DNA of 64,000 bases from Calothrix sp. NIES-2100 (GTDB lineage Bacteria; Cyanobacteriota; Cyanobacteriia; Cyanobacteriales; Nostocaceae). This document shows positions 9,240 to 32,861 of this stretch, in pieces. Below the pieces are notes generated by a model. It saw nothing but the letters and a program-made list of their open reading frames with translations, searched no databases and was not told the DNA's origin. A program made the position numbers and the translations under genes. Numbering within the stretch: the first letter of the stretch is position 1; every line of letters begins with the position of its first letter. The stretch spans positions 5,337,286 through 5,401,285 of the forward strand of contig AP018178.1 of NCBI GenBank assembly GCA_002368195.1, read 5' to 3'.

Positions 9240-9790
9240 CCAAATCTATCCGCTAGGGTATTTGTCATCCGGAAATTTCTTTGATTGTGAAATCATATTG
9301 GCCTTCGCAGATGTTTAGTCCGGAATTCTCGGAGTAAAAATTTATCTGAGAATAGTCTTACTTAAGTAGGGCGACGCACTAAAACTACGGGCATAAATCG
9401 TTATTTATGATTTCTTACAAAGTCTGATCTAAAGAAGCCCTGGATCAGACTTTGCGCTTTGTTACTTGTCATTTGTCATTTCCCAGAAGGAGCAGATAAC
9501 TCTTAACAGGGAACGGGGGATAATGCGTGAATTTTGAATTGTTTATCCCCCTTGGCTTCCTCTGTCCTAGTTCCCCTTGTCTCACTTGTCTCCCTTATCT
9601 TTATATTCCCAGTCACAACCAAATAAATATCAACTTAAGTTACTATTTAAGTTACCTATAAGTCACAGGCTTTATCTTTGTAAATTGAGAAATTTTTTCA
9701 GAAAAATTGCTGTTTACTCATCTCATTATCATCGGATTTTTTATATTAAAATGCAAGGACAGTTAAGACATTTAAGCTAAAAATCAAATG

Positions 9791-9888
9791 GACATTTAAG
9801 ACATTTAAGACATTTAAGACATTTAAGACATTTAAGACATTTAAGACATTTAAGACATTTAAGATTTAAGACAGTTAAAACACTTAAG
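9791..9888. repeat. Tandem repeat of the 9-bp unit GACATTTAA, about 8 perfect copies plus degenerate copies.
   Basis: Read directly: gacatttaa repeated 9791..9862, decaying into gatttaagacagttaaaacacttaag. Confidence 0.9.
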
Positions 9889-10078
9889 TGAAAAATTATG
9901 TAAATAATATACTAGTTGCTGCAACTGACAATAATTGAACAATATTTAACGATAAGTGAATGTTTGTCTACACATCAAACTTTGCGGGGAAATATATATC
10001 CTAGATTGCATCGCCACAAATTTTGCACAAATTATCTAGTATGAAGTTAATATAAGAATTTGATATCAAATATCTGAT

Positions 10079-13000
10079 ATGAAATACCAAGTTGGTGGTA
10101 GTATACCTAGTGATGATCCGAGCTACGTTATTCGTCAAGCGGACGCACAACTTTATACGAGCTTAAAAGCAGGCGATTTTTGTTACGTCTTTAATTCTCG
10201 CCAAATGGGTAAATCATCGCTGTTGCATCGCACAAAAGAGCGTTTGATGCAAGAAGGTAATAGCTGCATTTATATAGATGTAACACGCTTGGGTAGTGAA
10301 GATACAAAGACCGAACAATGGTATAAAGGAATTATTATCTGTCTTTTTTACGGCTTAAATTTAGCGGAAAAAGTTAATTTTAAAGAGTGGTGGGAGTTGC
10401 AAACAGGACTTTCACCTGTACAGAAGCTAAATCAGTTTGTCGAAGAGGTATTACTTACCTGTGAACAAAGTGAGCGAATCGTTATTTTTATTGATGAAAT
10501 TGATAGTTTATTGAGTTTGAGTTTTTCGGTTAGTGACTTTTTTGCTTGGATTCGTCATTGCTATAACCAACGCGCCCACGACCCAAAATTTCAACGTTTA
10601 GGATTTGCAGTGTTTGGGGTAGCCAGTCCATCTGACTTAATTGCTGATAAACGCCGCACACCTTTCAACATTGGCACAGCAATTGAGTTATACGGGTTTA
10701 AACTAGAGGAAGCTACCCCATTACTCCCAGGTTTAGAATCAGTAGTTAGCCAACCTCAAATAATACTACAGAAGATTATGGACTGGACTGCTGGACAACC
10801 TTTTCTGACGCAAAAAATTTGTCAGTTAGTTGTGCAGACCGCCAGAGAAACACCGCAGAAAAAAATTGATTTACCGCCAGCTACAGAAGGGTATTGGATC
10901 GAGCAACTGGTAAAAAAGCAGATTATTCAACAGTGGAAAGCCAAGGACGATCCAGAACACCTGCGCACAATTCGCGATCGCCTCCTGTACAACGAACAAC
11001 GCGCCGGGAGGTTGTTAGGTATTTATCAGCAGGTGTTACAAGCTGAAGCTGGTAAACCTCTTGTAGCGATCGATGATAGTCGAGAACAAAAAGAACTATT
11101 GTTATCTGGGTTAGTTGAAAAAAACAACGGCTATCTCAAAATTAAAAATCCCATCTATCGCCATGTTTTCAATTCTGAATGGGTGGAAAGACAATTAGAC
11201 AACCTGCGTCCTTACTCGCAAATCTTCAATGGTTGGGTAGCATCAAATTATCAAGATGAGTCACGATTACTGCGGGGAAAGGCTTTAAAAGATGCTCAAA
11301 ATTGGTCGCTGGGTAAAAGTTTAAGTGATTTGGATTATAAATTTTTTGCTGCTAGTCAAGAATACGAAAAGCGCGAAATTCAAACAGCATTAGAAGCAGC
11401 ACGAGCCAAAGAAATAGAAGCACGACTAGCACAAGAGAAAAAAAGTGCTAAAGTGCAAAGATTGTTGCTAATTGGCATGTGTATTAAGTTGTTCATTTCT
11501 ATAGGTTTGGGATGCGGAATTTACATTTTGTATCGCCAATCCCAGAAAAGCGAAACTCAAGCCAAAACTAGCGAAATTCAAGCCTTGGTATCGGCTTCTG
11601 AAGGCATGTTCGCCTCAAATCGTAGATTAGATGCCCTGATACAAGCAATTAAAGCTAAACAGAAACTACAACAACTAGAAAAACCAAACATCAATATTGA
11701 GCGTCAGGTAAACAATGTATTACAACAAGCTGTTTATGGGGCAGATGAATACAATCGATTTTCTGGTCATACAGCAGCTGTGATGTCAGTAGATATTAGT
11801 CCTGATAGTTCTTTAATTGCTTCCGCCAGTATAGATAAAACCATCACGATTTGGCAGCGTGATGGTACAGCCGTAGCAACTCTCAAAGGTCATCAGGGAG
11901 CAATTAGATGTGTTAAATTTAGTCCGGACGGTCAAACACTAGCCTCGGCGAGTGAGGATGGTACTATTAAACTGTGGAAACAAGAAAGTACAGACGGCCA
12001 GTGGCACATTTATAAAACATTCAAAGGTCACACTGCTTCCGTTTGGGGAGTCGCCTTTAGTCCTGATGGTCAATTTTTAGCCTCTACTGGTTGGGATAGA
12101 ACGGTAAGATTTTGGCAGCAAGATGGTAAACTGCTAAAAACATTTGCAGGTTACAAAGGATTTTGGGGAGTAGCTTTTAGTCCCGATGGTCAAACTGTTG
12201 CGGCGGCAAATCTAGATGGGACTGTAAAACTTTGGCAACGAGACAACACAGGCTGGCAAAACCCCAAAATTCTACAAATTCTCCAAGGACATAAAGCTTG
12301 GGTTGAGGGAGTCGCTTTTAGTCCTGACGGTCAAACCATTGCTTCTGCGAGTGAAGATAAAACAGTGAAACTGTGGCGGCGAGACAGTAAATATGGTAGC
12401 TATCGACTGGATAAAACTTTGCAAGGTCATACTGCTGGGATTGCAGGAGTCGCCTTTAGTCCTGATGGTCAGACTATTGTCTCTGCCAGTCTCGACAAAA
12501 CTATGAAACTTTGGAACATTGATGGTACGGAATTGAGAACGCTCAGAGGACATAGTGCTTCTGTTTGGGGAGTAAGTTTCAGTCCTGATGGCAGCTTTAT
12601 TGCTTCGGCGGGTGCAGAAAATCTTGTCAGACTCTGGAAAAGTCAAAATCCATTCCATAACAGTGTAATTGCCCACAATGCGGGGATTTGGTCAATAGCT
12701 ATTACCGCTGACAGTTCCACCATTGGCACAGCCAGTCACGAAAATGTTGCCAAATTGTGGAGTCCTCAAGGTAAATTGCTCAAAACTTTGACTGAAACAA
12801 GTGTCATGTTCGATGTTTCATTCAGTGAAGATGGCAAGTTAGTGGCTCTTGCTGCCTACGATGATACAGTAAAAATCAAGCGGCGAGACGGTACTAATGT
12901 TGCTAGTCGCAAAGATACCCACGGTATCATCACAGGAGCGAAATTGAGTCCCGATGGTCAAGCGATCGCCATTGCTAATGTTGACAAAATGGCTCAATTA

Positions 13001-13636
13001 TGGTCATTAAAAAATCCGGCATTGCAGTTTCTCAAAGGACATCAGGCAGAAGTCTGGCAAGTAGTCTTTAGTCCCGATGGTAAAATGGTGGCGAGCGCCA
13101 GTGCTGATGGTACTGCCAAGGTGTGGACACTAGACGGGAAGTTGCGCTCAACCCTCGTCGGACATGAGGCGGCTGTGTGGATAGTTGGCTTTAGTCCCGA
13201 CAGTAAAATGGTAGCTACTGGCAGCGGTGACAATACCATGAAGTTGTGGACGGTGGATGGTAAGTTATTGCAAACTTTCATTGGTCACACAGGTGCAATT
13301 TGGGGAGTAGGGTTTAGTCCCGATGGCAAAATCATTGCTTCTGGTAGTGTGGATGCTACCATCAAACTTTGGAAGCTGGATGGTACGGAAATAACCACCC
13401 TTAGAGGTCATACTGCGGCTATTCGCAAAATTGCTATCAGCCGCGACGGCACTTTTCTGGCCTCAGGGGGTGATGATAACACACTGATGATCTGGAATTT
13501 ACCGCGTATTCTCAACTTAAATCCACTTCCTGATGCTTGCACTATTGTCCAGGACTATTTGAAAACTAACACCACAGTGGAAAAAGGCGATCACTCTTTA
13601 TGCCAATTCCATAACAAAGCAAAAGCATCGAGTTAG
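10079..13636 (+). CDS. STAND-type signalling protein: AAA-like NTPase domain, coiled-coil/TM linker, then about 14 WD40 repeats, 1185 aa.
   Basis: N-terminal P-loop-like NSRQMGKSSLL. A TM-like segment LLLIGMCIKLFISIGLGCGIYILY. Repeated GH..xVxxVxFSPDGxxxASAS.DxTxKLW units run from about 11760 to 13500. Confidence 0.85.
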   Translation: MKYQVGGSIPSDDPSYVIRQADAQLYTSLKAGDFCYVFNSRQMGKSSLLHRTKERLMQEGNSCIYIDVTRLGSEDTKTEQWYKGIIICLFYGLNLAEKVNFKEWWELQTGLSPVQKLNQFVEEVLLTCEQSERIVIFIDEIDSLLSLSFSVSDFFAWIRHCYNQRAHDPKFQRLGFAVFGVASPSDLIADKRRTPFNIGTAIELYGFKLEEATPLLPGLESVVSQPQIILQKIMDWTAGQPFLTQKICQLVVQTARETPQKKIDLPPATEGYWIEQLVKKQIIQQWKAKDDPEHLRTIRDRLLYNEQRAGRLLGIYQQVLQAEAGKPLVAIDDSREQKELLLSGLVEKNNGYLKIKNPIYRHVFNSEWVERQLDNLRPYSQIFNGWVASNYQDESRLLRGKALKDAQNWSLGKSLSDLDYKFFAASQEYEKREIQTALEAARAKEIEARLAQEKKSAKVQRLLLIGMCIKLFISIGLGCGIYILYRQSQKSETQAKTSEIQALVSASEGMFASNRRLDALIQAIKAKQKLQQLEKPNINIERQVNNVLQQAVYGADEYNRFSGHTAAVMSVDISPDSSLIASASIDKTITIWQRDGTAVATLKGHQGAIRCVKFSPDGQTLASASEDGTIKLWKQESTDGQWHIYKTFKGHTASVWGVAFSPDGQFLASTGWDRTVRFWQQDGKLLKTFAGYKGFWGVAFSPDGQTVAAANLDGTVKLWQRDNTGWQNPKILQILQGHKAWVEGVAFSPDGQTIASASEDKTVKLWRRDSKYGSYRLDKTLQGHTAGIAGVAFSPDGQTIVSASLDKTMKLWNIDGTELRTLRGHSASVWGVSFSPDGSFIASAGAENLVRLWKSQNPFHNSVIAHNAGIWSIAITADSSTIGTASHENVAKLWSPQGKLLKTLTETSVMFDVSFSEDGKLVALAAYDDTVKIKRRDGTNVASRKDTHGIITGAKLSPDGQAIAIANVDKMAQLWSLKNPALQFLKGHQAEVWQVVFSPDGKMVASASADGTAKVWTLDGKLRSTLVGHEAAVWIVGFSPDSKMVATGSGDNTMKLWTVDGKLLQTFIGHTGAIWGVGFSPDGKIIASGSVDATIKLWKLDGTEITTLRGHTAAIRKIAISRDGTFLASGGDDNTLMIWNLPRILNLNPLPDACTIVQDYLKTNTTVEKGDHSLCQFHNKAKASS

Positions 13637-14278: not shown

Positions 14279-16096
14279 ATGGTTCGTATTCTGCTAGTAG
14301 ATGAGCAAAAACGCCTTAGAAAATACTTGCACGCTCTATTAGATCCAGATTGTGATTTAGAGGTAATCGCCACGATTCAAAAAGGTAAGAGTGCGATTGA
14401 GCAAGTAGCTAGTTTACAGCCTGATATAGTCCTAATAGACATAGATACACTTGGCATAGATGGGGTGCAAGCCACCAAGACAATCTGTCAGCGATTTCCG
14501 CAGATCAAAGTTCTCGTGTTGAGCAGTAACGATCGAGATGAATATATCCATCAAGCCTTGGATGCAGGGGCGATAGGCTATCTGATCAAAAATGTATGTG
14601 CTGAGGAATTACGAGAGACAATTCGCTTTTTTTGTCAAGATTCTATTAAGTTGGAACATAAACTTCCACAACAATCTAATCTAAAAATTCCAGTATCAAC
14701 TTCAGTATCTGCAAACTCGGTCTTTAAAGAATCTGGCTTGAAAATTCCTGTAGTAGAGAAAGAACTTAACTTATCTGCTAATTCATCACAGTTCCAGTCA
14801 TTCAGAAAGTTCATACCGCCTCCTAGCAATCAAAAAGAAATGACTAGTCTATCAAATCAACCATCCCCTAAACAAATTAGCTGGTATCAATTACTCACAT
14901 TACTCATGATTGCTGTTGGTTGTACCACTGGTATTTATCTTCTTCGCCAGGCACTGAGGAAGCCGCTGCCATCATTGAACTACATACAACAACAGTCAAC
15001 ACTGATGGGCACAGAATTTAGCGGTAAAGTTAAGCCAGCTAAAATAGTGAAAATAGCTGCATCTATCCCTTCAGTAGTTGAAAAAATTAATGTGCAAATT
15101 GGCGATAAAGTTAATCTGGATCAACCCCTCATAGTTCTCAAAAACCCTGAGAGTGACAGAGAAATTGAACAAATTTTGCAGCAACGCCAAAATCTCCTAC
15201 AACAAGAACAAGCAGTACTTCAACAACAGCAAACTGCTAAACAAAAAGTTTTAATCTGGGAGCAGAAAATTACCGACATTAATCGTCAGGAAACGCCACT
15301 AGCTGCGAAAATAGCTGATGCAGATTTGGAGTTATCTTTAACTCAGAGTGAAGCTGATAAACTACCTTTACCCCAAAGACAGGATTCAGTGGAAAGAACT
15401 AAAGCAATTTACGAAAGAGCTGAATCAAGAGTACGCCGATTTGCACAACTTTATCAACAGGGTGCGATCGCCCAAGATCAATTGGAGCAAGCACAAGCAG
15501 ATCTCAAAGTTGCTAAAGCAGATTATCAAGTAGCTGAAACTGCTGCTGCTACCGCAAACAATCTAGAACTTGCCAAAAAACAAAAGTCTCAGTTACAACG
15601 TCAGGTATCCTTAGAACAACAAAAACTCAAGCGCCAAGAACTAGAGCAACAGTTACAAAATTTGCGCTTAGAGTCTCAACAAGCAACTGAACGATTAAAA
15701 TTAATCCGTGAACAATCAACTCAGCTTTTCCAGCGTCAGATGCCATCGGGAAATACTATAGTGAAGGCGACAAGTGCGGGAGTAGTAGTGCAAGTACCAG
15801 TGAAAATCGGCGATCAAATCTTCACTGGTAACCCCCTGCTAGAATTAGCCCAACTCAAGTCCCTCAACGTTGAAGTATTGGTTAATGCTCGGCTAATTAA
15901 CGCTCTGCGTCAAGGTCAAAAAGCCACCATTAAAGTAGGTATAGGAAAAACTGCTCAGAAGTTTGAGGGAAAAATCGTCACGATTAATCCCATACCCTCT
16001 GAGAACATGAATCACACTGTTGAGATCCAGTTTGAAAATCCTGATGATGCTTTACTAGTGGGGCAAATGGCAGCTATCCAGTTTTTACCAGATTAA
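14279..16096 (+). CDS. Response-regulator receiver (REC) domain fused to an HlyD-family membrane-fusion/periplasmic adaptor protein, 605 aa.
   Basis: N-terminus MVRILLVDEQ...DIVLIDIDTLGIDG...VLVLSSNDRDEYI...GYLIKN matches a CheY-like receiver. This is followed by a TM helix, a biotin-lipoyl-like segment (VEKINVQIGDKVNLDQPLIVL), a long Q-rich coiled coil and a C-terminal beta-barrel (VKIGDQIFTGNPLLEL). Confidence 0.8.
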   Translation: MVRILLVDEQKRLRKYLHALLDPDCDLEVIATIQKGKSAIEQVASLQPDIVLIDIDTLGIDGVQATKTICQRFPQIKVLVLSSNDRDEYIHQALDAGAIGYLIKNVCAEELRETIRFFCQDSIKLEHKLPQQSNLKIPVSTSVSANSVFKESGLKIPVVEKELNLSANSSQFQSFRKFIPPPSNQKEMTSLSNQPSPKQISWYQLLTLLMIAVGCTTGIYLLRQALRKPLPSLNYIQQQSTLMGTEFSGKVKPAKIVKIAASIPSVVEKINVQIGDKVNLDQPLIVLKNPESDREIEQILQQRQNLLQQEQAVLQQQQTAKQKVLIWEQKITDINRQETPLAAKIADADLELSLTQSEADKLPLPQRQDSVERTKAIYERAESRVRRFAQLYQQGAIAQDQLEQAQADLKVAKADYQVAETAAATANNLELAKKQKSQLQRQVSLEQQKLKRQELEQQLQNLRLESQQATERLKLIREQSTQLFQRQMPSGNTIVKATSAGVVVQVPVKIGDQIFTGNPLLELAQLKSLNVEVLVNARLINALRQGQKATIKVGIGKTAQKFEGKIVTINPIPSENMNHTVEIQFENPDDALLVGQMAAIQFLPD

Positions 16097-16102
16097 TTTT
16101 TC

Positions 16103-17623
16103 ATGAAGAGACTATCTGTATTATTGACTACGGAAGGGACTTATCCCTACCATAAGGGCGGTGTAAGTACCTGGTGTGATGTTTTAACCAGCCAACTTCC
16201 AGAGGTAGATTTTCATGTGTTGGCGATCGCGGCTAATCCTTACCTAGAGTTACGCTATAAATTACCCAATAATGTCAAGCAACTGGTGAAAGTGCCCTTG
16301 TGGGGAACAGAAGACCCTGTAGAATACTCTTGGCGCTTCCCCTTTTCTCAGGCATTTAAAAGCAAAATAGAAACCACAAACAGGGTAATTGCAACTCAGT
16401 TTATCCCTTTATTTGAGGGTTTTTTAACAGCCATCCTCTTGCACGAACCAGATATCGAGCAGTTGGCCCACCTCATACTGGCAATTTATAAATATTTTCA
16501 GCGTTATGACTACCACAAGACAATGGAGTCGAAACTGGTATGGTCAACTTTTCAACGTTTAACCGCTACTCATTGGCATCCGTTAGTTAATCCTAATGCC
16601 GTCAAACTCATAGAACAGACGGAAGCCATGCGCTTACTCTATCGGTTTCTCATTCCCATTCATATCCCTGTTCCTAAAACCGATATCACCCATGCCTCAT
16701 CTGCTGGTTTTTGTGGCTTACCCTGTGTTATTGCCAAGTTAGAAAGAGGTACTCCTTATCTGCTCACAGAGCATGGTATCAATATTCGAGAGCAGTATTT
16801 AAATTTAAATCGCAGTATTCCCTCCCTATTTGTGCGTCAATTCTTATATCGATTAATGGGGGCGGTAGTTAAAGTCAACTATCACTACGCCGATCAAATT
16901 TCTCCTGTTTGTGAATACAATGCTCGTTGGGAACGTTGGTGGGGGATACCTGACCATAAAATCAAGGTGATTTACAACGGAGCCGATCCAAATATCTATC
17001 ATCCTACCCCAACCGTCGCTAAAGAACGACCTCAAGTCATGAACATGGGCTTGATTTTTCCTCTCAAAGGACAACTAGATTTGATCGCCGCAGCCGCTAT
17101 TGTCCGAGAGAAAATCCCCAATGTGGAATTTCGCTTTTATGGTCGTCCTTCCGATGAAAAATATTTTGCTCAATGTCAAGAATTAGTTCGCACCCATAAT
17201 TTAGAAGCAAATATCAACTTTGCCGGATTTACTAGCGAGCCTTGGCGAGCTTACAGTGAGGCAGATGTAGTGGCTATGTCGAGTATTTCTGAGGGCTTCC
17301 CTTATGCTCTCATTGAAGCCATGCTTTCCGGGGCTACCATTGTTTCTACGGATGTCGGCGGTGTCAGCGAAGCTTTAGGTGATACCGGATTACTCGTACC
17401 AGCCCATCGTCCTCAAGCCCTAGCTGCGGCGATTTTGCAGCTTCTAGAGTTACCCGAAACTGATAGGCGGAAATTTGGCCAGTTAGCCCATGAACGCGCC
17501 CTCAAGTTATTTACTCAGCAAAAATTCTTAGATGCACACATGGATAGTTATTACAACCTCATGAAACAAGTAAAAACAGACACAACTTCTATGAAAGAGT
17601 TGGCGATCGCATCTTCTAAGTAG
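16103..17623 (+). CDS. GT4-family glycosyltransferase with DUF3492-like N-terminal domain (PelF-like architecture), 506 aa.
   Basis: The C-terminal EGFPYALIEAMLSGATIVSTDVGG is the GT4/Glycos_transf_1 E-x7-E region. About 280 aa of non-GT N-terminal domain precede it, as in PelF-type enzymes. The gene starts 7 bp after the HlyD-fusion stop. Confidence 0.75.
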   Translation: MKRLSVLLTTEGTYPYHKGGVSTWCDVLTSQLPEVDFHVLAIAANPYLELRYKLPNNVKQLVKVPLWGTEDPVEYSWRFPFSQAFKSKIETTNRVIATQFIPLFEGFLTAILLHEPDIEQLAHLILAIYKYFQRYDYHKTMESKLVWSTFQRLTATHWHPLVNPNAVKLIEQTEAMRLLYRFLIPIHIPVPKTDITHASSAGFCGLPCVIAKLERGTPYLLTEHGINIREQYLNLNRSIPSLFVRQFLYRLMGAVVKVNYHYADQISPVCEYNARWERWWGIPDHKIKVIYNGADPNIYHPTPTVAKERPQVMNMGLIFPLKGQLDLIAAAAIVREKIPNVEFRFYGRPSDEKYFAQCQELVRTHNLEANINFAGFTSEPWRAYSEADVVAMSSISEGFPYALIEAMLSGATIVSTDVGGVSEALGDTGLLVPAHRPQALAAAILQLLELPETDRRKFGQLAHERALKLFTQQKFLDAHMDSYYNLMKQVKTDTTSMKELAIASSK

Positions 17624-17640
17624 AGAGGCGCAAAAAATCG

Positions 17641-17800
17641 AAGTTGCTCACTGAGCGTAAAGCCTCCGGCATAGCTTCTCCTGTCGGAGAGGCTGCGCCA
17701 ACGCTTAGCGCGTAGCGTCTCGCAGAGAAGTCGAAGTCAGCCAAGTTGCTCACTGAGCGAAGTCGAAGTGAGCGAAGTCGAAGTCAGCCAAGTCTAAATG
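17641..17800. repeat. Copy of a short dispersed intergenic repeat family (MITE/REP-like) plus GAAGTCGAAGT tandem units.
   Basis: The core ggcatagcttctcctgtcggagaggctgcgcc and flanking cgcttagcgcgtagcg recur at 54340..54480 and 60060..60180 (partly inverted). Confidence 0.7.
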
Positions 17801-17857
17801 TGCCCTCTATCTTGTCTTAATTACAATTTTTAACGGCGACTGAACTTATCTAAATAT

Positions 17858-18706
17858 ATGAATCTTTATTTCAAAACAACACGCAAATTGATTATGAGTG
17901 GTTTATTGACAGCAACACTTGCTTGTAGTAATGGGATTAAGCCAGAAACTGCCACGGCTCAAACTAAAATTCTCATCCCTCTTTATTCCTATCCTACCTG
18001 GTACAATCCCGAAGCTTATACTTGGCCGAAAATAGCTGCGGCTGCAAGTCAAGTCCCGATTACTGCCATTATTAATCCCAATAATGGCCCCAATAATGGC
18101 CCACCAAACAGAGATTATGCCAGAGGTATTCAAGACCTCAAACAAGGGGGTGTAACAATCCTGGGTTATGTGGCTACGAATTACGGCAAACGCGACATCT
18201 CTCAAGTCAAAGCTGATATTGATATCTACGCTAAGCATTTTCATCTTGATGGGATTTTCTTAGATGAAGCCGCCAGTGGGGCAGACAAGCTCAACTACTA
18301 CCAGGAAATTTACAAACACATTAAAACTCAGCCCCAACTGAAAATGGTTGTACTCAACCAAGGTACTCAAACCGATCAAGGATATCTGACTCGACCAGCA
18401 GGGGATAACCTAGTCATTTTTGAAAATTATTCAACTGCTTGGAATCAATACCAGCCTCAGACCTATGTCAAAAATTACGAGTCTGGGCATTTTTCCTGTT
18501 TAATTCACACCGTTCCTGATGTTGCCACAATGAAACAACATATTAATCAGGCTGTGGCACGCAATATCCAATATATCTACATCACAGATGATAGCCCTGA
18601 TAATCCCGACAAAGATCCTTGGAACAGCTTACCCTCTTACTGGCAAGAGGAAGTAAATCATATCCGGTCTTTAAATCAAAAAGTTCAGAGGTCTTCAGGA
18701 AGCTGA
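17858..18706 (+). CDS. Spherulation-specific family 4 (spherulin-4-like, Sph3/GH135-like) protein with signal peptide or lipoprotein signal, 282 aa.
   Basis: ILIPLYSYPTWYNPEAYTWP..., GYVATNYGKRDISQVKADIDIYAKHFHLDGIFLDEAASG and the overall length match the spherulin-4 family pattern as recalled from memory. N-terminus LTATLACSNG. Confidence 0.6.
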   Translation: MNLYFKTTRKLIMSGLLTATLACSNGIKPETATAQTKILIPLYSYPTWYNPEAYTWPKIAAAASQVPITAIINPNNGPNNGPPNRDYARGIQDLKQGGVTILGYVATNYGKRDISQVKADIDIYAKHFHLDGIFLDEAASGADKLNYYQEIYKHIKTQPQLKMVVLNQGTQTDQGYLTRPAGDNLVIFENYSTAWNQYQPQTYVKNYESGHFSCLIHTVPDVATMKQHINQAVARNIQYIYITDDSPDNPDKDPWNSLPSYWQEEVNHIRSLNQKVQRSSGS

Positions 18707-20487
18707 ACTTGATAGATTCTCAAGTCATTATCTTCATAATAGATAGCCACCTCCTGTTCATGGAGGTGACGATAAGTCTCACACATCTGCAATGCTGTAA
18801 ATTGTAAGCTGGCACGACCTGCCGATGAGCGATAGTTACGATAGGTAGGGTCAGATAAAACAGAGTAGGGAAGCATTTGGCTTTCACTCAGTCCTGTAAC
18901 CAAGGGTCGTTTTTCGACAAAGATAAACAGATTTGGTACTGAATAACGGAAGTGAAAATCAGGTTTGCTGACTTTAGATCCATACTTCTCCACAAATAAC
19001 CCCAGATCCTCATACCAGCCAGCACCATAACTTTCTGCTAGTTGTTCAATGGGGGCGACAATCACCCAGCGCTTGATGGGGAATCTAACTCGTAGTTCTA
19101 GGGTTTTACGCGCAGCCATTTCATATTCGAGATAGCTGAGTTTCGGAGAAAGTGGCAACAAAAAGTTAATTGCGATCGCCAACATCAAAATCACGCAGAT
19201 AATCTCAGACCATAAACCTAATATCAGACTCAGCAACCAGCTGCTGGGGATTAACACCAGTCCCCAAAGCCAGCTTAGTCCTACAGGTAGTGTGACTAAA
19301 AAAGTGCTTTCCCATCCCAAGGGATTTTCCGGGAAAGCAAAGCCTAAAGCCAATATTATCCAACTAATAGTAACTACAGTTAGTGCTAATCTCCCTCCAC
19401 CAATGAAGCTGATTCCGCCGATGAATGCCAGAATCAGCAACGTTGGTTTAATAATTGCCACGATCGTTAAGCAGCAAACTGCATCAATCAACGCTTCTCG
19501 ACGATATTTACTTTTAGAAGCTTCCCAACCTCGTCCTAAACCTAAAACCAAAAACATAACTCCAATTTCTAAGTTATCCCCTGCCCATTGGCGGATTAAG
19601 GAGGAATTCAAACTTTGAGTTACTGTTGTTAGCCATTGCTGTAACCAAATCGGAGCAAATTCAGGAATATGTCGATGGGAAGTGAACAGATAAGCCCCTA
19701 AGCTACACATCGCACCAATAGCAGCTGTTTTATGCTGAGAAATCACACCGATACCATAGCCGACACTTAGCACCAATAGACAGCCTAAGAGGGGCCCCAG
19801 GAAGCGGATCACCTGCATGGCATCAATCGCACCCAACAGCGATAAGACGCTAGCTAAAGTAGAGAAGGCGGGAAAAGAGTGAATCTGTCCTGGCCAATCC
19901 CCTGCTATGAGTTGCCTGGTAGCCAGCAGAATACTATAACTATCTGGATTTCCCAAACGCAGTTCCTGCAAAGGATGCTCAAATCGCAGTAATACAGCAA
20001 ACGTCAGGATAACAGTGAGTAGCAGAACCTCCAGTATTGTTTGTGAGAAGGCGATCGCGATTACTTGCTGAGCGATCGCCAGTTGTTTTTTTCCCGCCTG
20101 CCAACTTCTATCAACAACCTGAAGAATTTTTGGTAAAAAGCCTTGATCTAGAGCATCTAACACAGCAAATCCTACCCTGTGGCATATCAGATTCAACTGC
20201 TTTTTAACACGCCAATCATGCTGTTGCAGCCAGGGTAGAAGCAAACAACCGCTATATAAAAGTACTAGAGTAAACCAGCTAAACAAATGCAAGGCACTCA
20301 ACAACCAAACCCCTATGAAAGTGACTAGCAACATTCGCGCCCAGCCACTTACTATTCGACTTGGCCAAGGCATTGTTTTCGGAAAAGTAAAAATTACGCT
20401 GGGCAGCCAGATAAACACAATGACAAGCACTATGGCTACCCATATAGTAGTGAGCAAATCAAAAATAAAGGTTTGCAGAACTAACAC
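18685..20487 (-). CDS. Polytopic membrane protein (at least 12 predicted TM helices) with about 150-aa soluble C-terminal domain, 600 aa. Function unknown.
   Basis: Long hydrophobic segments throughout. The 3' end overlaps the convergent spherulin-like gene by 22 bp. No recognisable catalytic motif. Confidence 0.55.
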   Translation of the reverse strand: MLVLQTFIFDLLTTIWVAIVLVIVFIWLPSVIFTFPKTMPWPSRIVSGWARMLLVTFIGVWLLSALHLFSWFTLVLLYSGCLLLPWLQQHDWRVKKQLNLICHRVGFAVLDALDQGFLPKILQVVDRSWQAGKKQLAIAQQVIAIAFSQTILEVLLLTVILTFAVLLRFEHPLQELRLGNPDSYSILLATRQLIAGDWPGQIHSFPAFSTLASVLSLLGAIDAMQVIRFLGPLLGCLLVLSVGYGIGVISQHKTAAIGAMCSLGAYLFTSHRHIPEFAPIWLQQWLTTVTQSLNSSLIRQWAGDNLEIGVMFLVLGLGRGWEASKSKYRREALIDAVCCLTIVAIIKPTLLILAFIGGISFIGGGRLALTVVTISWIILALGFAFPENPLGWESTFLVTLPVGLSWLWGLVLIPSSWLLSLILGLWSEIICVILMLAIAINFLLPLSPKLSYLEYEMAARKTLELRVRFPIKRWVIVAPIEQLAESYGAGWYEDLGLFVEKYGSKVSKPDFHFRYSVPNLFIFVEKRPLVTGLSESQMLPYSVLSDPTYRNYRSSAGRASLQFTALQMCETYRHLHEQEVAIYYEDNDLRIYQVQLPEDL

Positions 20488-21395
20488 AATAATTTACATT
20501 AATATCTCTTAGTCAATCAAAACTCAGCTAGCAGCAACTGTCAATTCAAGGGTTCTAGATATACACATTAAGGCTACTCTTGCAACCTTGATAATTGTAA
20601 ATTTAGTACACAATAGCGGAAATAAAGCCATCCCTCACAATGGCGCGAACATCTGATATGGTGAGCTTTTTGAATTCCGCACACCAGTACTAGGTTTTAA
20701 CCCCCAAGCTTATTTAAACATGGTAATTACCTATTCAAAGTTATTTTATCATTTTAAAATGAGGAACATATGAAGAAAGTAAAATTAGTGTTTTTACTTG
20801 TTTTAACCGAGACTTTATAGATAGTTTATTGATTCTTTATAGAAAGTGTAATATGTTGAAAACGGTAGTTTTTATTACATAAAATTTAGCTATTTATTGT
20901 AAACAGTCTGAAATAATACCAATAATTAACAAAAGATTTAAAAAAATGCAGTTTTATGTCAAAAAAATAAACTTGCACAATCTGGTTAAAAAACAGATCA
21001 GTAAATTTATCGAGGTGTAGTAACATCATATTTGCATTATGAATAAAACAACGAAAATTTATGTACTGGAAAATTTACCAAGAATTTATTTTTTAATAAG
21101 TATTTACGTAAGACAATATGGTTCAGATGCTCATCAGGTTGATTATGAATAAATAAGTTAGTTAATTTGAAAAGTATCCTAAAAATTCGCCAATACCATC
21201 TCTAAAAATAGATTTTCAATTCTCAAAAAAATCTAACGATTGAAACGTATTGGTTGAACATCTAAAGTTTCAACATCATTTCAGGATAGAGGGTGATTAG
21301 TTTCACTTCTAGCCAACTTTTTGATGTATACATGCTGAAAAATTTATTTTTTGAGGCAGACAAAAAAATTTCATTATCATTTAGGGAGAAAAAGA

Positions 21396-22606
21396 TGGCT
21401 AAAAAAATATTAGTAACCGGAGGAGCAGGTTATATTGGCTCCCATACAATCCGTCAATTAGGAGAAGCTGGCTATGATGTAGTGGTTTATGACAACCTCT
21501 CTACAGGTTCAGCAGCATCAGTAATTTATGGTGAACTAATTATTGGTAGTCTCGACGATAAAAATTTATTATCTCAAACATTTAGTCAACACAAATTTGA
21601 TGCAGTTTTGCATTTTGCAGCTCATCTATCTGTACCAGAGTCAGTAGTAAAACCTCTTGATTACTATACAAATAATACTTGTAATACCCTGAATTTATTG
21701 CATTGTTGTCAATTATTTGATGTAAAAAAAATAATTTTTTCTAGTACAGCTGCGGTTTATGGTCAACCTGAGGAATATCCCGTAACAGAGTTATCACCGA
21801 CCAAACCCATGAATCCCTATGGTCGTTCCAAGCTGATGAGCGAACAAATTATCCAAGACTTTGCGCAAGCATCTGGATTAAAATACGTGATTTTACGTTA
21901 CTTTAATGTCGCTGGAGCAGATACTACAGGAAAGTTAGGTCAGTCTGCCAAGAAAGCAGAACACTTAATTAAAGTGGCTTGTGATGCAGCTTTAGGTCGT
22001 CGTCCCTGTGTGAATATCTTTGGAACAGACTTTCCCACCGCAGATGGAACGGGAATTAGAGATTACATCCATGTGGAAGATTTAGCTACAGCCCATGTTG
22101 ATGCGTTGCAGTATCTCGAAGCAGGAAATGACAGTCAAATATTCAACTGTGGTTATGGTCAAGGCTATAGCGTGCGGGAAGTCTTAAAGATGGTGCAGAA
22201 AATCTCTGGAGTAGACTTTCCTGTAATTGAAAACCAACGACGAGCAGGAGATCCGGCTTGTGTTGTAGCCAGCGCTGATAAAATTCGCACCATATTAGGT
22301 TGGGAACCCAAATACAACAATTTAGAAACCATTGTCTCTACAGCTTTAAACTGGGAGAAAAAATTAATTGCTTTGGCCACATTAGAAAAACAGCTAGCAC
22401 AACAGAATTTCCGGCTAGGTGCTCTATTGCTAGAAAACAAAATTATTTCATCGACCGAATTAGAACGAGCTTTACACGAGCAATTAGTCACTAAGCAGAA
22501 ATTAGGGGAAATATTGGTGCATAAGTCAATTATTTCCACTCAAATGCTGGAAAAATTTTTGTTAGAGCAAACTTGGAGAAAACAAGGCATTTGGTTGCAA
22601 GTGTAA
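21396..22606 (+). CDS. galE: UDP-hexose 4-epimerase (GalE/SDR family) fused to a C-terminal T2SSE_N/MshEN-like domain with two tandem c-di-GMP-binding-type motifs.
   Basis: Start chosen at MAKKILVTGGAGYIGSH (Rossmann GxxGxxG) with GGAGAAAAAG 6 bp upstream. The track ORF begins 103 bp earlier with no RBS. YxxxK epimerase core. The C-terminus has RLGALLLENKIISSTELERALHEQ and KLGEILVHKSIISTQMLEKFLLEQ (22412..22560), which fit the RLGxxLLxxGxIxxxxLxxALxxQ MshEN motif. Confidence 0.8.
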
Positions 22607-22829: not shown

Positions 22830-25800
22830 ATGAGTAATGATCTGTTGATAATCGACCTCGAAGAGGTATTAAAAAGAGCAATAAATAACATTAGCGAATT
22901 CTTTACATCTGCTGAGTATGCGCAGAAAATGAATTTAGCATTTGGAGAAAAGTGGGATCAAGAGAAAGCCAAGAAGGTAATTGCGGGAATCATCAACAAT
23001 ACAAACCTCCCAGAAATTCAAGTAGTTGACTCTTTAGAAATAAATGGTGGACAAGGAGCTTTTGGGAGTTTTAACCAGACAATTTATTTATCAAAAGCGC
23101 TTTTAAATGATGCAGTCAAAAGTGTTGATGTCCTGATAGAAGAACTAGGGCATTTTATAGATTCGCAGATAAATATTCAAGATGCACAGGGCGATGAAGG
23201 AGCAATTTTTGCCGCAATCGTCCAAGGTAAAGAGCTAACTCAAACTCAACTCTTAGGGTTGAAAAGTGAGAACGATACAACAAATGTCATCATCAATGGA
23301 GAAGCCAGAACATTAGAGCTAGCAGCTACCTACGGTAATATTAGCCTCGATGGTAACTTAAGTGATTGGACATCAGCAGAGAGATTAGATTTTCTTCCTG
23401 GAACAGGAATACCAGGATACGAAATCTATGGAAAGTATGCAGGAGATGCTTATGTATTCGCCTTGAAATCGGATACCCAAGCGATAGGTGCGGGCACAAC
23501 ATTCTGGCTAAATACAGACAGAAATGCGAGTACAGGTTATCAAATATTTGGTCAGACTGGAGTAGGAGGAGCCGAATATAACGTTGATTTCTTTACAGAT
23601 AATGTACCCTCTTTATACACAGGAGGAGCCGGAGCCAATTTGGTCGGTGGTTCTTTAAACTATGCCTATGGTACTAATAATCAAATAGTTGAATTCGCCG
23701 TTCCAATAGCACTTTTAAATGGAGCGCCACAAGCAATTGATGTTTTGACGGATATTAATAACCAAACATTTTTACCGTCTAATTATTCATCTCAAAAATA
23801 TACGGTTTCTGTTTTACCACCAAGAACAGACTTTAGTAAGAAGGTTGGGATAGTATTTTCGGAAACTACAGCGAAAAATTTCTTTCAAGATAAAGCCTAT
23901 ACCCAACTCTTCCTGTCGATGCAAAGCCAAGCAATGCAGGCGGGTATTCCCTTTGATATTCTCACAGAGAATGACTTAACAGACCTCAGCAAGGTTGTTA
24001 ATTATGATGCGCTGATATTTCCTTCTTTCCGAAATGTACCTCTGGCGAAGCTGGATGCAATTCAAAATACACTCACACAAGCCGTCTACAAATATAATAT
24101 TGGACTGATTACAGCTGGAGACTTTTTAACTAACGATGAAAATAATAATGCTTTAGCCGGAGATTCCTACATCCGGATGAAGCAGTTGTTGAATGTGACT
24201 AGAACTGGTGGCGGTGGGCCAGTCAATGGTGTTCTCAACGCTGAGGATATTGCTCATCCAGTGATGCAAGGTTATTCTACGGACGAGGCGATTCGTAGTT
24301 ATAACGGCATCTTTTTTAATAGCTATGGTGATGCAGATAGTACAGACAATAAAACACCCATAGTTCTCGCAGATTTTTTGGTAAATGGGCAGAAAAATAA
24401 TGCTGTACTAGCAACACAAACCGGTGGTAGAAACGTCCATTTTGCCACTGAAGGGTTCATGGGAGATAACAATTTACTGTGGAAAGCATTGCAATGGGCT
24501 GTTCTTGATAACAAACCCAAAGTAGCGTTAAACATGAGCCGGGATGCAAGTATATTTGTTTCGCGGACTGATATGGATCAGTCTCAGGAAGCTGAGGATG
24601 TGAATCCGGTGGGAACTACTCCAGGGATTTACGATCGCCTGCTGCCGACTCTGACACAATGGAAAAACGACTATAATTTTGTCGGGTCATACTACATCAA
24701 TGTGGGTAACAATCCAGCAAATGGGCAAGTGACTGACTGGACTGTCTCCAAGCCTTACTATAATCAAATCCTGGCTCTACAAAACGAAATTGGTACCCAC
24801 TCTTATACTCACCCCGAAGACACAAATCAGAACACCTATAAAGAAAATAATGCGTCGGCTCCTATAACTCCCACTCTCACTGATGCACAATATGCTACTA
24901 AGTTGGAGTTTGAATTTAACCAATCACAATTAGTCATTGAGCAACAGTTAGGAATTCAAGTTTCAGGCGCAGCGATTCCCGGCGCACCAGAAGGTTTAGG
25001 AGTTTCCCAAGAGCTTCAGAAATACCTATCCTATGTTTCTGGTGGTTATGCAAGTGTAGGTGCAGGTTATCCCAGTGCTTTTGGCTTTATGTTTCCGGGT
25101 AAGGATTATGTCTATTTAGCCCCGAACATGTCCTTTGATTTTTCGCTGGTAGAGTTTCGCAAGTTAACAACACAGCAAGCGGAAGCAGAATGGCTTAAAG
25201 AATATACTGGTTTAACCAATCATGCAGCCCAAGCTATCATTCATTTTCCTTGGCATGATTATGGCCCTACAGCGTGGGATACTAGTCCAGAGGATAATCT
25301 ACCCTCGCCTTACAATCAGGCAATGTTTACTAATTTCCTTGCCAGAGCATACAAGGATAATACAGAGTTTATTACCGCGTTAGATTTAAGCGATCGCATC
25401 AGAACTTTTGAGAAATCACAATTAACTATTGATTATCCCAGTGCAAATACTATTACTGCTACTGTTGCAGGAGTTACTAATGTAGGGACTTTTGGTTTAA
25501 ATATCGATCCAACTCAAACCATTAAAAGTGTGAATGGTTGGTATGCCTACGATAAAGATACGGTATTCTTACCAGCTAATGGCGGTCAATTTACAATCAA
25601 TTTGGGAACTCTTCAAGATGATGTGACCCATATTACTGACCTACCAATGCGTGGCGAATTGAAGTCTGTTATCGGTAATGGCACTGATTTAGAATTTACA
25701 TTCTTTGGTGAGGGTAAAGTTGTCTTAGATTTAAAAAATCCCACTGGATTGAATATTGTCACTCAAGGTGCAAGTAGTACGACTCTCAACGGTGAGATTC

Positions 25801-27092
25801 TCGAGATGAATTTTAGCGGTCTGAGTCTACACACTGGCAAAGTGACATTAGCTCCAGATACTCCCCCAACAGTAGCTAACCCAATTGCCGATGTCAGCGT
25901 ACTTGAGGATGCAGCAGATACTGTAATTAATTTAAGTAATGTCTTCACAGATATTGATAACGCTGTTACTGGCATTACTAAGACAGTTAAAGCTAATAGC
26001 AATAGTGGCTTAGTTAATGCCAGCATTGTTAACAATAATCTGACTCTGGATTATCTACCGAATCAATTTGGGACTGCGACAATTACTATTACTGGTACAT
26101 CTAATGGCAAAACTGTTGATGATACCTTTACAGTCAACGTTGCGCCTGTGGATGATGCGCCGACTGTGGTTACTCCAATTGCTGATGTTATTGTTAATCA
26201 AGGTTCTGCTAACACTAATATTAATTTAGGTAGTGTCTTTACTGATATAGATAACGATGCTGCGGCGATTACTAAGTCAATTGTCACCAATAGCAATAAC
26301 ACCTTGGTGAATGCCTCAATTGTGGGTAATTCTTTAACCTTGCAATATTTACCCAATCAATTTGGTAATGCGCAAGTGACTGTGCGTGGTACATCTGGCG
26401 GTAAAACAGTTGATGATACTTTTAGTGTCACTGTTAACCCTGTGGGCAATATCATTAATGGTACTGCTGCAAACAACTCTCTTTTAGGTACTTCAGGTAG
26501 AGATATCATTAGCGGATTTGGTGGTAATGACACCATAGATCCTAGAGAGGGTAATGATGTTGTTTATGGTGGCGATGGTAACGATTATGTTTTGGGAAGT
26601 TTAGGGGATGATTTAATTTATGGGGACGCTGGTAACGATACGTTATTCGGTGGCTCAAATAACGATACCCTTACTGGTGGTAAAAATAGTGACCGATTAG
26701 TTGGTGACTCAGGAATTGACACTCTGATTGGTGTCAACCCCAATGATACTTTAGCTGGAGCAGGAGAAATTGATACCTTAACTGGTGGTACTCAAGCTGA
26801 TTTATTTGTTCTCGGTGATAGAACTAAGGCTTACTACAATGATGGTAATAATCTTAGCTCTGGCACGGGTGACTATGCTCTAATTACAGACTTCAGTACC
26901 TTTGAGGGAGATAAAATCCAACTTTTTGGTAGCGCCGCCAACTATAGAATCAATAATCTTTCATTTAGTTTATCATTGGGCTTCCATAGCGCGCTTTACT
27001 TAAGAACTGGCGGTCAGGATGAGCTAATAGGAGCGATTCAAGGATTTAATAGCCTGAGTCTTACTAGTAGCAGTTTCAGCTATGTGAGCTAA
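22830..27092 (+). CDS. Giant secreted multidomain protein, paralogue 1 (1420 aa). Conserved N-terminal module, NodB-like metal-dependent deacetylase/esterase motif, Ig/FN-like segment, 2 cadherin-like (DDAP-type) repeats, RTX nonapeptide Ca-binding repeats, conserved C-terminal domain.
   Basis: [12 protein letters not shown] (H-S-x-x-H NodB motif 2). Repeats [18 protein letters not shown]...[13 protein letters not shown]. GGxGNDxLxG-type repeats GFGGNDTIDPREGNDVVYGGDGNDYVLG. No N-terminal signal peptide (T1SS-type substrate expected). Confidence 0.8.
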   Translation: MSNDLLIIDLEEVLKRAINNISEFFTSAEYAQKMNLAFGEKWDQEKAKKVIAGIINNTNLPEIQVVDSLEINGGQGAFGSFNQTIYLSKALLNDAVKSVDVLIEELGHFIDSQINIQDAQGDEGAIFAAIVQGKELTQTQLLGLKSENDTTNVIINGEARTLELAATYGNISLDGNLSDWTSAERLDFLPGTGIPGYEIYGKYAGDAYVFALKSDTQAIGAGTTFWLNTDRNASTGYQIFGQTGVGGAEYNVDFFTDNVPSLYTGGAGANLVGGSLNYAYGTNNQIVEFAVPIALLNGAPQAIDVLTDINNQTFLPSNYSSQKYTVSVLPPRTDFSKKVGIVFSETTAKNFFQDKAYTQLFLSMQSQAMQAGIPFDILTENDLTDLSKVVNYDALIFPSFRNVPLAKLDAIQNTLTQAVYKYNIGLITAGDFLTNDENNNALAGDSYIRMKQLLNVTRTGGGGPVNGVLNAEDIAHPVMQGYSTDEAIRSYNGIFFNSYGDADSTDNKTPIVLADFLVNGQKNNAVLATQTGGRNVHFATEGFMGDNNLLWKALQWAVLDNKPKVALNMSRDASIFVSRTDMDQSQEAEDVNPVGTTPGIYDRLLPTLTQWKNDYNFVGSYYINVGNNPANGQVTDWTVSKPYYNQILALQNEIGTHSYTHPEDTNQNTYKENNASAPITPTLTDAQYATKLEFEFNQSQLVIEQQLGIQVSGAAIPGAPEGLGVSQELQKYLSYVSGGYASVGAGYPSAFGFMFPGKDYVYLAPNMSFDFSLVEFRKLTTQQAEAEWLKEYTGLTNHAAQAIIHFPWHDYGPTAWDTSPEDNLPSPYNQAMFTNFLARAYKDNTEFITALDLSDRIRTFEKSQLTIDYPSANTITATVAGVTNVGTFGLNIDPTQTIKSVNGWYAYDKDTVFLPANGGQFTINLGTLQDDVTHITDLPMRGELKSVIGNGTDLEFTFFGEGKVVLDLKNPTGLNIVTQGASSTTLNGEILEMNFSGLSLHTGKVTLAPDTPPTVANPIADVSVLEDAADTVINLSNVFTDIDNAVTGITKTVKANSNSGLVNASIVNNNLTLDYLPNQFGTATITITGTSNGKTVDDTFTVNVAPVDDAPTVVTPIADVIVNQGSANTNINLGSVFTDIDNDAAAITKSIVTNSNNTLVNASIVGNSLTLQYLPNQFGNAQVTVRGTSGGKTVDDTFSVTVNPVGNIINGTAANNSLLGTSGRDIISGFGGNDTIDPREGNDVVYGGDGNDYVLGSLGDDLIYGDAGNDTLFGGSNNDTLTGGKNSDRLVGDSGIDTLIGVNPNDTLAGAGEIDTLTGGTQADLFVLGDRTKAYYNDGNNLSSGTGDYALITDFSTFEGDKIQLFGSAANYRINNLSFSLSLGFHSALYLRTGGQDELIGAIQGFNSLSLTSSSFSYVS

Positions 27093-27122
27093 ATAATTAC
27101 TAGCCTTTAGTTTGCGTGATTA

Positions 27123-27170
27123 ACTCATACAGAGGAAGACACTTCCATACAAGTGTACCTCTGTTGAGTC
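27123..27170 (+). terminator. Conserved stem-loop downstream of paralogue 1 (stem actcaTAcagagg / cctctgttgagt).
   Basis: Seen directly. Homologous hairpins follow paralogues 2 and 3. Confidence 0.4.
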
Positions 27171-27347
27171 AGCTAAAAAAGAAAGTGCAAGTCACAAAAA
27201 GTAAGTATATAAAATTAATATATTTTTGATTTTATATATACAAAAATCATCTTTTATTTGCCGGAATTAACTACAGATTTTTGTATTATTAATTATTGGA
27301 TATTAGTCAGTTTTGGAAAATTACATATCTTAAAAAAATAAAAACTT

Positions 27348-32801: not shown

Positions 32802-32830
32802 CAACTTATAGCATTGAGATTGGTTGATTA

Positions 32831-32861
32831 ACTCAACAGAGAAACTTTACCTCTGTTGAGT
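32831..32861 (+). terminator. Conserved stem-loop downstream of paralogue 2 (perfect 11-bp stem actcaacagag / ctctgttgagt, 9-nt loop).
   Basis: Seen directly. There is no U-tract, so it may be an RNA stability or processing element rather than an intrinsic terminator. Confidence 0.4.

Follow-up and report, generated by a model that had tools for sequence, protein, structure and literature searches.

A candidate Pel- and galactosaminogalactan-like exopolysaccharide gene cluster in Calothrix sp. NIES-2100 and other cyanobacteria

We examined a 64,000-nucleotide stretch of the genome of Calothrix sp. NIES-2100 (assembly GCA_002368195.1, contig AP018178.1, positions 5,337,286 to 5,401,285; hereafter the window, with positions counted from its first nucleotide). 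At approximately 14279-38535 it holds a conserved cluster of nine genes that represent seven gene families, and this cluster probably encodes a synthase-type machine for a partially de-N-acetylated, N-acetylgalactosamine (GalNAc)-rich exopolysaccharide similar to bacterial Pel and fungal galactosaminogalactan (GAG). The domain assignments, the fold assignments, and the synteny on which this reading is built are direct observations. The window proteins that were looked up are identical to BAY24526-BAY24532 and NIES2100_43290, and the RefSeq names for individual proteins include PelF, spherulation-specific family 4, GalE, polysaccharide deacetylase, and response regulator.

An initial annotation, made by eye, had already proposed a Pel/GAG-like system at this site. 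Its four domain architectures and their coordinates proved correct when scanned with hidden Markov models (HMMs) from Pfam and NCBIfam, and its interpretation is supported as far as computation goes, which leaves the chemistry, the binding of cyclic di-GMP (c-di-GMP), and the export route as predictions. However, it closed the cluster at 22606, which is too short, as it lacked two further conserved members, a minus-strand gene at 18685-20487 and a gene at 36988-38535. The proteins overlooked in this way, a GT-C glycosyltransferase and a MOP-fold transporter, respectively, alter the mechanistic picture.

Polymerase, hydrolase, epimerase and gene order

The gene at 16103-17623 (plus strand) encodes a PelF-like family 4 glycosyltransferase (GT4), in which Pfam recognizes the proposed DUF3492 (E 1.6e-48) and Glycos_transf_1 (E 2e-30) domains. 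The product passes the NCBIfam PelF equivalog NF038011 with 149.9 bits (cut-off 100; model positions 2-487 of 489), carries the EX7E motif of GT4 enzymes at E397-E405, and is named 'GT4 family glycosyltransferase PelF' in RefSeq; we presume that it is the cytoplasmic polymerase. It is 26-35% identical to annotated plasmid-borne pelF products, and its nearest plasmid-borne glycosyltransferase (GT) relatives lie in clusters with galactosamine (GalN)-specific enzymes in Deinococcus and Sulfitobacter. More specifically, a GAG-like cluster on a plasmid of Deinococcus sp. QL22 (NZ_CP097154.1, 155244-176671) combines a PelF-like GT with a short-chain dehydrogenase/reductase enzyme, a nucleotidyltransferase, an Agd3-like protein with CBM87 and carbohydrate esterase domains, and two genes annotated as endo-alpha-1,4-polygalactosaminidase, of which the one scanned belongs to Pfam GH114. 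The Sulfitobacter cluster comprises galE, a gene annotated as endo-alpha-1,4-polygalactosaminidase, pelF, and pelG.

The neighboring gene at 17858-18706 (plus strand) encodes a Spherulin4/GH135-like hydrolase, a reading by eye that Pfam PF12138 upholds (E 1.7e-54, 185 bits against a cut-off of 30.2). The protein has an N-terminal signal peptide with a possible lipobox cysteine, Cys23, and is matched by phmmer to the Sph3 structures 5d6t and 5c5g (E 2e-16). The hydrolase domain of Sph3 is described as a retaining endo-alpha-1,4-N-acetylgalactosaminidase with the putative catalytic residues D166, E167, and E222 (PMC10485009). In our alignment, these correspond to D136, E137, and E189 of the window protein. 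The domain, the Asp-Glu pair, and the second Glu place the protein in the Spherulin4/GH135 family at the level of sequence. The closest non-cyanobacterial homologue that we looked at, from Verrucomicrobiae, has no comparable cluster around it.

The epimerase gene at 21395-22606 (plus strand) specifies 403 residues (an exact match to BAY24530.1), a GalE-type UDP-hexose 4-epimerase with a C-terminal extension. It scores 476 bits against the GalE equivalog TIGR01179, membership of which is uninformative on N-acetylated substrates; because it is GalE-type and weakly TviC-like, it is not a PelX orthologue. When aligned with E. coli GalE, it presents T118, Y142, and K146, including the Y-x3-K motif, and has Val290 at the position of Tyr299, a replacement that is kept in the orthologues aligned. 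The bulky Tyr299 of E. coli GalE limits the use of N-acetylated substrates, and a smaller residue would be compatible with the group 2 epimerases. Variants of the cluster in other genomes carry additional genes for amino sugar supply, glmS (800 bits) in Coleofasciculaceae and glmM (586 and 565 bits) in Hydrococcus and Planktothrix, which points to a polymer derived from UDP-N-acetylglucosamine (UDP-GlcNAc). Four independent lines of evidence, namely these glmS and glmM genes, the Sph3-like hydrolase, Val290 of the epimerase, and the clusters in which the GT relatives reside, argue for a hexosamine polymer, specifically of the GalNAc type.

A genome scan anchored on the GT-C family gave 41 loci, 35 of which are cyanobacterial or unlabelled, many on short contigs, and the neighbors in these 35 were tabulated by tblastn within at most 10 kb. 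Near the GT-C gene, GalE occurs in 25 loci, the N-terminal module of the RTX proteins in 23, the GT4, the adaptor, and Spherulin4 in 15 each, and the MOP-fold gene in 10. The arrangement is conserved as well, with GalE immediately upstream of the RTX gene (23/23), GT-C and GalE divergent (24/25), and GT-C and Spherulin4 convergent (13/14), while the GT4 and MOP-fold genes share a strand in 10 of 10 cases and are immediate neighbors outside Nostocales. Six genes are present in nine loci and all seven in seven, from Nostocales, an uncultured cyanobacterium known from a metagenome-assembled genome (MAG), Leptolyngbyaceae, and Coleofasciculaceae. Pfam-labelled neighborhoods in Calothrix PCC 6303, Hydrococcus, Planktothrix, and two MAGs agree with this picture. 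Neither of the two computational refutation tests named in the initial annotation refuted it: HMM searches upheld the DUF3492/GT4 and Spherulin4 assignments, and synteny of the orthologues extends over Nostocales, Oscillatoriales, Pleurocapsales, Leptolyngbyaceae, and Coleofasciculaceae. None of the carriers that we saw is a standard genetic model.

Membrane, regulatory and secreted components

The cluster opens with a HlyD/RND-type membrane-fusion protein (MFP, adaptor) fused to a receiver (REC) domain (14279-16096, plus strand). This combination, too, had been read by eye, and Pfam detects Response_reg (E 6e-22), HlyD_D23/HlyD_3, and Biotin_lipoyl_2, with 86 bits against NCBIfam RND_mfp, under the cut-off of that model. 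Residues 1-120 form the REC domain, a single transmembrane helix spans residues 202-222, and the remainder consists of a periplasmic coiled coil and barrel-sandwich. D8/E9, D54/D56, S82/S83, and K104 represent the acidic pocket, the candidate phospho-acceptor Asp, and the conserved Ser and Lys of REC domains. The adaptors of Planktothrix, Lyngbya, and some MAGs are missing the REC domain. In one Coleofasciculaceae MAG (15116-19400), where the adaptor has no REC domain of its own, two PAS histidine kinases flank the cluster and one of them is a hybrid with REC. MFP-dependent polysaccharide export has been proposed for cyanobacterial cellulose (XcsB), and the export of rhizobial mixed-linkage glucan requires BgsB and TolC, which has genetic support; a comparable route via the MFP may serve the polymer considered here.

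The 515-residue protein at 36988-38535 (plus strand) is polytopic, with the transporter fold of the MOP superfamily (MATE/MurJ/Wzx) and a conserved cytoplasmic N-terminal domain (ESLGYTD). It has no Pfam match at E up to 10 and no NCBIfam match, and it is not a member of the PelG family of inner-membrane partners (PF16933). A 516-residue neighbor of the PelF-like GT on the Deinococcus plasmid has the ESLGYTD domain in common with it (hhalign E 6.8e-05). The protein is a candidate functional analogue of PelG by fold and not by sequence.

The minus-strand gene at 18685-20487 encodes a 600-residue polytopic protein with a GT-C glycosyltransferase fold and a soluble C-terminal domain, which has no Pfam or NCBIfam match. 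D111 is invariant and D114 nearly so (DALD), and R168 and R177 are invariant. The polytopic fold and the conserved acidic motif, which lies in the first extracytoplasmic loop, place the protein among the GT-C glycosyltransferases. The protein deposited in GenBank and RefSeq has 562 residues, 94% of the open reading frame (ORF); as homologues of about 600 residues conserve the first 38 residues (D10, W16, P29), the deposited start is probably too far downstream and the GTG at 20487 fits better. An AT-rich intergenic region (20488-21394) separates this gene from the divergent galE and presumably holds the promoters of both. The role of the GT-C enzyme is most likely to decorate or anchor the polymer. 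Glycosylation of the RTX proteins was also considered and was rejected, because type I secretion substrates bypass the periplasm, where GT-C enzymes act. A distant homologue (31% identity) in a Blastocatellia MAG (8867-11785) lies divergent beside a weak Spherulin4-like gene (E 4.5e-05), and a Ser/Thr kinase with a weak PilZ match is encoded near this pair; the pairing suggests that the association of GT-C and Spherulin4 predates the cyanobacteria.

Three tandem RTX paralogues follow the epimerase gene on the plus strand: paralogue 1 (22830-27092, 1420 residues; HemolysinCabind), paralogue 2 (27348-32801, 1817 residues; HemolysinCabind, E 4e-41), and paralogue 3 (33054-36794), for which the ATG at 33054 is the likely start in an ORF that opens at TTG 33003. 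Each combines an N-terminal module of about 1000 residues, made up of an optional N-domain, CBM-like, alpha/beta, and NodB-like domains, with C-terminal RTX repeats. The modules are 83-86% identical among the three (paralogues 1 and 3, 83% over 1023 residues; paralogues 2 and 3, 85%), and paralogue 2 has a far longer repeat region and a weak CBM_56 match. Among the loci seen, the triplication is present only in Calothrix NIES-2100, and the related genomes examined carry one copy. The optional N-domain corresponds to the first 165 residues or so (22830-23330, 27348-27850, and 33054-33550), conserves EELGHxIDSQIN and GDEGAIF, has no family match, and is absent from the Planktothrix and Stanieria orthologues.

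The RTX proteins are labelled 'peptidase-like' in GenBank, and paralogue 1 is named 'polysaccharide deacetylase' in RefSeq. Six of the seven aligned N-terminal modules match Polysacc_deac_1 (best E 7.6e-08), the Planktothrix orthologue does so confidently, and the motifs DMD, HSYTH, and WHD are invariant in the alignment (DMD, HSYTHP, and WHDY in paralogue 1). For the secreted NodB-motif proteins proposed at 22830-36794, the RTX part is a confident assignment and the NodB motif is persuasive at the family level, but the window copies stay under the Polysacc_deac_1 threshold (paralogue 2, 22.4 against 23.1 bits). The RTX proteins have no match to Pfam PF25116 or PF25115, and thus no Agd3/CE18 signature. 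The RTX region of paralogue 3 matches the RTX blocks of CyaA and serralysin. Since there is no N-terminal signal peptide and the C-terminal RTX blocks resemble those of CyaA and the serralysins, their secretion is expected to depend on a type I system whose genes lie elsewhere.

The C-terminal extension of the epimerase contains, at residues 340-392 (22412-22570, plus strand), a tandem MshEN-type c-di-GMP motif. The epimerase-MshEN fusion seen by eye is borne out by TIGR01179 for the enzyme and by NCBIfam NF053729 ('c-di-GMP motif, MshE-related') for the tail, which matches the model over its full length (positions 1-53 of 53) with 51.5 bits (cut-off 38), but not by Pfam MshEN/T2SSE_N, which does not match the tail. 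The layout of exactly 24+5+24 residues is that of the MshEN c-di-GMP site, and the contact residues of V. cholerae MshE (R/K-L-G, Leu17, Leu21, and Gln24) are all kept in both half-motifs. The turn position of motif 1 is K, Q, N, or R throughout the orthologues. With the contacts kept and the turn glycine consistently replaced in motif 1, the tail may plausibly bind c-di-GMP.

Orthologues from Nostocales, Hydrococcus, Planktothrix, Lyngbya, Coleofasciculaceae, and Leptolyngbyaceae share the tail, which the Pleurocapsa/Waterburya versions lack. Similar tails were found on many architectures, including FHA, TPR, and WecG-type GT proteins, in a search of 50%-identity representatives, which cannot count epimerase fusions. 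The tail also weakly matches the NfrB-type NCBIfam model PRK15489, and we found no report of an MshEN-epimerase fusion in the searchable literature.

By Pfam and NCBIfam, none of the PelA, PelB, PelC, PelD, and PelE families is present among ORFs of at least 100 residues at 10079-41097 that are not inside a larger gene. An Rfam scan of 13000-40000 revealed no riboswitch or other RNA element, and its sole match was a chance CRISPR-DR (E 0.89). Around the cluster, two AAA_35 NTPase genes lie upstream (7842-9239 and 10079-13636, the second fused to a large WD40 array) and are not kept beside it in other genomes, and a TetR-family regulator (38755-39405) is immediately 3' of the MOP-fold gene. Further away are an IS605-family OrfB/TnpB transposon gene with a Cas12f-like TNB domain (3037-4206, minus strand) and a GH31 glycoside hydrolase of full four-domain architecture (57539-60016), which has no apparent tie to the cluster.

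Proposed mechanism and alternative readings

From these assignments we infer the substrate, the polymer, the binding of c-di-GMP, the export route, and an order of steps, which may run as follows. The GalE-type epimerase would convert UDP-GlcNAc to UDP-GalNAc, and possibly UDP-Glc to UDP-Gal, and in variants with their own glmS or glmM the supply of UDP-GlcNAc would be raised. Binding of c-di-GMP to the MshEN-type tail may activate the enzyme or dock it on the synthase, such that the c-di-GMP input would sit on precursor supply instead of a PelD-type receptor. The soluble PelF-like GT4 would polymerize the chain at the inner membrane, and the MOP-fold protein, whose gene comes right behind that of the GT in most lineages, would carry it across that membrane, as proposed for PelG. 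The REC-MFP would then form the periplasmic conduit to a TolC-like outer-membrane factor not encoded in the cluster, and it is possible that phosphorylation of the cytoplasmic receiver domain gates this conduit. In the periplasm, the Spherulin4/GH135 (lipo)protein may trim or release the chain, and the GT-C protein, which would draw on a polyprenyl-phosphate-linked donor at the periplasmic face, would most likely decorate or anchor it. Finally, the RTX proteins would be exported by a type I system that is encoded outside the cluster and would remove acetyl groups from the extracellular polymer by de-N-acetylation, thereby making it cationic and adhesive.

Several observations weigh against this reading. 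The PelF score of 150 bits is modestly over its cut-off, at an identity of 26-35% to annotated PelF, and the 515-residue family shows no sequence relationship to annotated PelG (hhalign probability 0.05%, for a PelG that itself matches PF16933 at 172 bits). The Polysacc_deac_1 scores of the window copies are 22.4 and 19.1 bits against the threshold of 23.1, with no match in paralogue 1; a profile of the RTX N-terminal module gave nothing significant against PDB sequences, neither a CE4 nor an Agd3 structure, and its comparison with the bacterial Agd3-like protein by hhalign and BLASTP was not significant. GalE-type enzymes also supply galactose-containing polymers. In the epimerase tail, the turn glycines of MshEN are replaced (K349 in motif 1, S378 in motif 2), motif 1 fails even the relaxed published MshEN pattern at the turn position, and Pfam run on the tail alone returned no MshEN match. 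Some lineages lack the tail and some lack the REC domain, and thus neither is essential to the system. The GT-C enzyme has no explained role under a pure synthase model, and genes for an outer-membrane factor, an ABC transporter, or a polyprenyl-phosphate sugar synthase are absent from the window.

It is possible that the cluster does make an exopolysaccharide, but one that is not built on GalNAc or GalN, for instance a sheath or capsule polymer that contains galactose or glucose or is based on GlcNAc. In that case GalE would provide UDP-Gal, the linkage cleaved by Spherulin4 would be a different one, and the NodB-like module would either take off some other acyl group or have no catalytic function. 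The silence of the GalE equivalog on N-acetylated substrates, the great divergence of the NodB module, the low PelF identity, the fungal origin of all characterized GH135 enzymes cited, and the hint of additional sugars given by the GT-C enzyme would each be consistent with such a product. We nevertheless consider it unlikely, as glmS and glmM lie within variants of the cluster, the gatekeeper position of Tyr299 is occupied by Val, the putative catalytic residues of Sph3 are conserved, and GTs of the same clade sit with GH114 genes annotated as alpha-1,4-polygalactosaminidase, accompanied in Deinococcus by an Agd3-like deacetylase.

Two other explanations concern the unity of the cluster. The genes may form two unrelated modules that happen to be neighbors, an exopolysaccharide synthase (MFP, PelF-like GT, and MOP-fold protein) and a surface remodelling set (GT-C, GalE, RTX, and Spherulin4) acting on another glycan of a sheath, lipopolysaccharide, or glycoprotein. 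Such a division would suit the Pleurocapsales, which have the GT-C/GalE/RTX trio with no GT4 module within 10 kb, and Stanieria PCC 7437, in which the GT-C and MOP-fold homologues carry distant locus tags, as well as the Blastocatellia homologue, which stands beside its weak Spherulin4-like gene in a 21.7-kb locus where no PelF-like GT was found. However, both sets occur within about 15 kb in nine loci from at least four lineages with differing gene orders, which indicates selection for linkage; Spherulin4 is found on either side, beside the GT in Nostocales and, judging by adjacent locus tags, beside the MOP-fold gene in Stanieria NIES-3757 and Chondrocystis, and an epimerase and a polymerase are a natural pair of supplier and user. 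Two separate modules are thus quite improbable. We regard it as more improbable still that REC-HlyD is the type I secretion adaptor of the RTX proteins and no polysaccharide conduit. Secretion of RTX proteins depends on an MFP, an ABC transporter, and TolC, the adaptor has HlyD-family domains, and the RTX genes are in the same cluster; yet the adaptor gene is immediately upstream of the GT4 gene, on the same strand, in 13 of 13 loci and stays with GT4 where GT4 and the RTX gene are separated, as at locus L016. No ABC exporter is encoded in the window or beside the MFP in the neighborhoods examined, and the only ABC gene noticed, in Stanieria, is near a GT-C gene at a locus that has no MFP. The best NCBIfam matches of the adaptor are RND, CzcB, DevB, and EmrA-type adaptors and not type I HlyD, and MFPs that serve polysaccharide synthases are documented. 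The strict coupling to the GT, the lack of an ABC exporter alongside, and the RND/DevB/EmrA-like profile therefore suggest that the adaptor serves the polysaccharide and not the RTX proteins.

Relation to known systems and significance

The cluster resembles Pel in its DUF3492+GT4 synthase, which passes the NCBIfam PelF model, in the MOP-fold partner directly after the GT in most lineages, and, as predicted from sequence, in a UDP-hexose 4-epimerase, hydrolase and deacetylase functions on the product, and a c-di-GMP input. It differs in lacking the PelA-PelE families and in a membrane partner that is not PelG by sequence. A GH135-like protein stands where Pel has the hydrolase domain of PelA, the putative deacetylase is an RTX protein of its own with predicted type I secretion in place of a periplasmic PelA domain, and the candidate c-di-GMP module, an MshEN-type tail, sits on the epimerase where Pel uses PelD. 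Moreover, the epimerase is of the GalE type as opposed to the group 3 PelX/WbpP type, the outer-membrane route would involve an MFP as opposed to PelBC, and there is an extra GT-C enzyme. Clusters with pelF and pelG alone are a recognized 'pel-like' category (epsSMASH), and the present cluster would be a further, more divergent Pel-like variant, distinguished by an accessory set of its own.

Like the fungal GAG cluster (uge3, gtb3/GAG synthase, sph3, agd3, and ega3), it assigns the GalE-type epimerase, the synthase, the GH135-like hydrolase, and the predicted secreted deacetylase to distinct genes, and the Spherulin4/GH135 hydrolases possess the same putative catalytic residues. In contrast, its putative deacetylase is not Agd3/CE18-like by sequence, it contains no GH114 (Ega3), and it has a soluble PelF-type GT and a separate transporter where fungi have a single large membrane synthase; the parts that span the envelope (MFP, RTX/type I secretion) and the predicted c-di-GMP and phosphorelay inputs are bacterial features. 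The XcsA-XcsB-TolC system of cyanobacterial cellulose and the rhizobial BgsA-BgsB-TolC system likewise pair an HlyD-family MFP with a polysaccharide GT, are c-di-GMP-regulated, as is predicted here, and have an outer-membrane factor elsewhere. Their GTs, however, are membrane GT2 enzymes that bind c-di-GMP themselves (through PilZ or the C-terminal domain of BgsA), whereas the present cluster has a soluble GT4 and an MFP with a receiver domain at its N terminus. The GT2 exopolysaccharide synthase NfrB of E. coli, which bears an MshEN domain at its C terminus, is a documented precedent for fusing an MshEN-type module to an enzyme of an exopolysaccharide pathway, although there the module is on the polymerase and here it is on a nucleotide-sugar epimerase.

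The initial annotation regarded the combination as not described as a unit, and we found no description of the cluster, the GT-C family, or the MOP-fold family in the searchable literature either. We tentatively suggest, as somewhat less than an even prospect, that the cluster, widespread among cyanobacteria, forms an evolutionary and mechanistic bridge between bacterial Pel and fungal GAG in which c-di-GMP would be sensed by an MshEN-epimerase, the chain would leave through a new MOP-like family and a phosphorylation-gated MFP/TolC route, a new GT-C family would take part, and type I-secreted RTX proteins would act as extracellular deacetylases. If true, this would be the first MshEN-epimerase fusion and would include a GT-C family that modifies or anchors a polymer in the periplasm. 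Very few c-di-GMP receptors have been identified in cyanobacteria, and the epimerase with its MshEN tail is a candidate c-di-GMP effector of new architecture.

Three conserved families with no Pfam or NCBIfam match are defined by this work: the GT-C-fold enzyme, the MOP-fold transporter, and the RTX-linked NodB module. The cluster also ties Spherulin4/GH135, which as far as we found has been characterized only in fungi, to a PelF-type synthase, and thus bears on the relation between Pel and GAG. The GH135-like and putative RTX-deacetylase enzymes may be of use against Pel/GAG-type biofilms. Cyanobacterial sheaths, mats, blooms, and biocrusts rely on exopolysaccharides of mostly unknown genetics, and the cluster is a concrete, testable candidate for the source of a cationic, adhesive polymer in cyanobacteria that grow as filaments or colonies.

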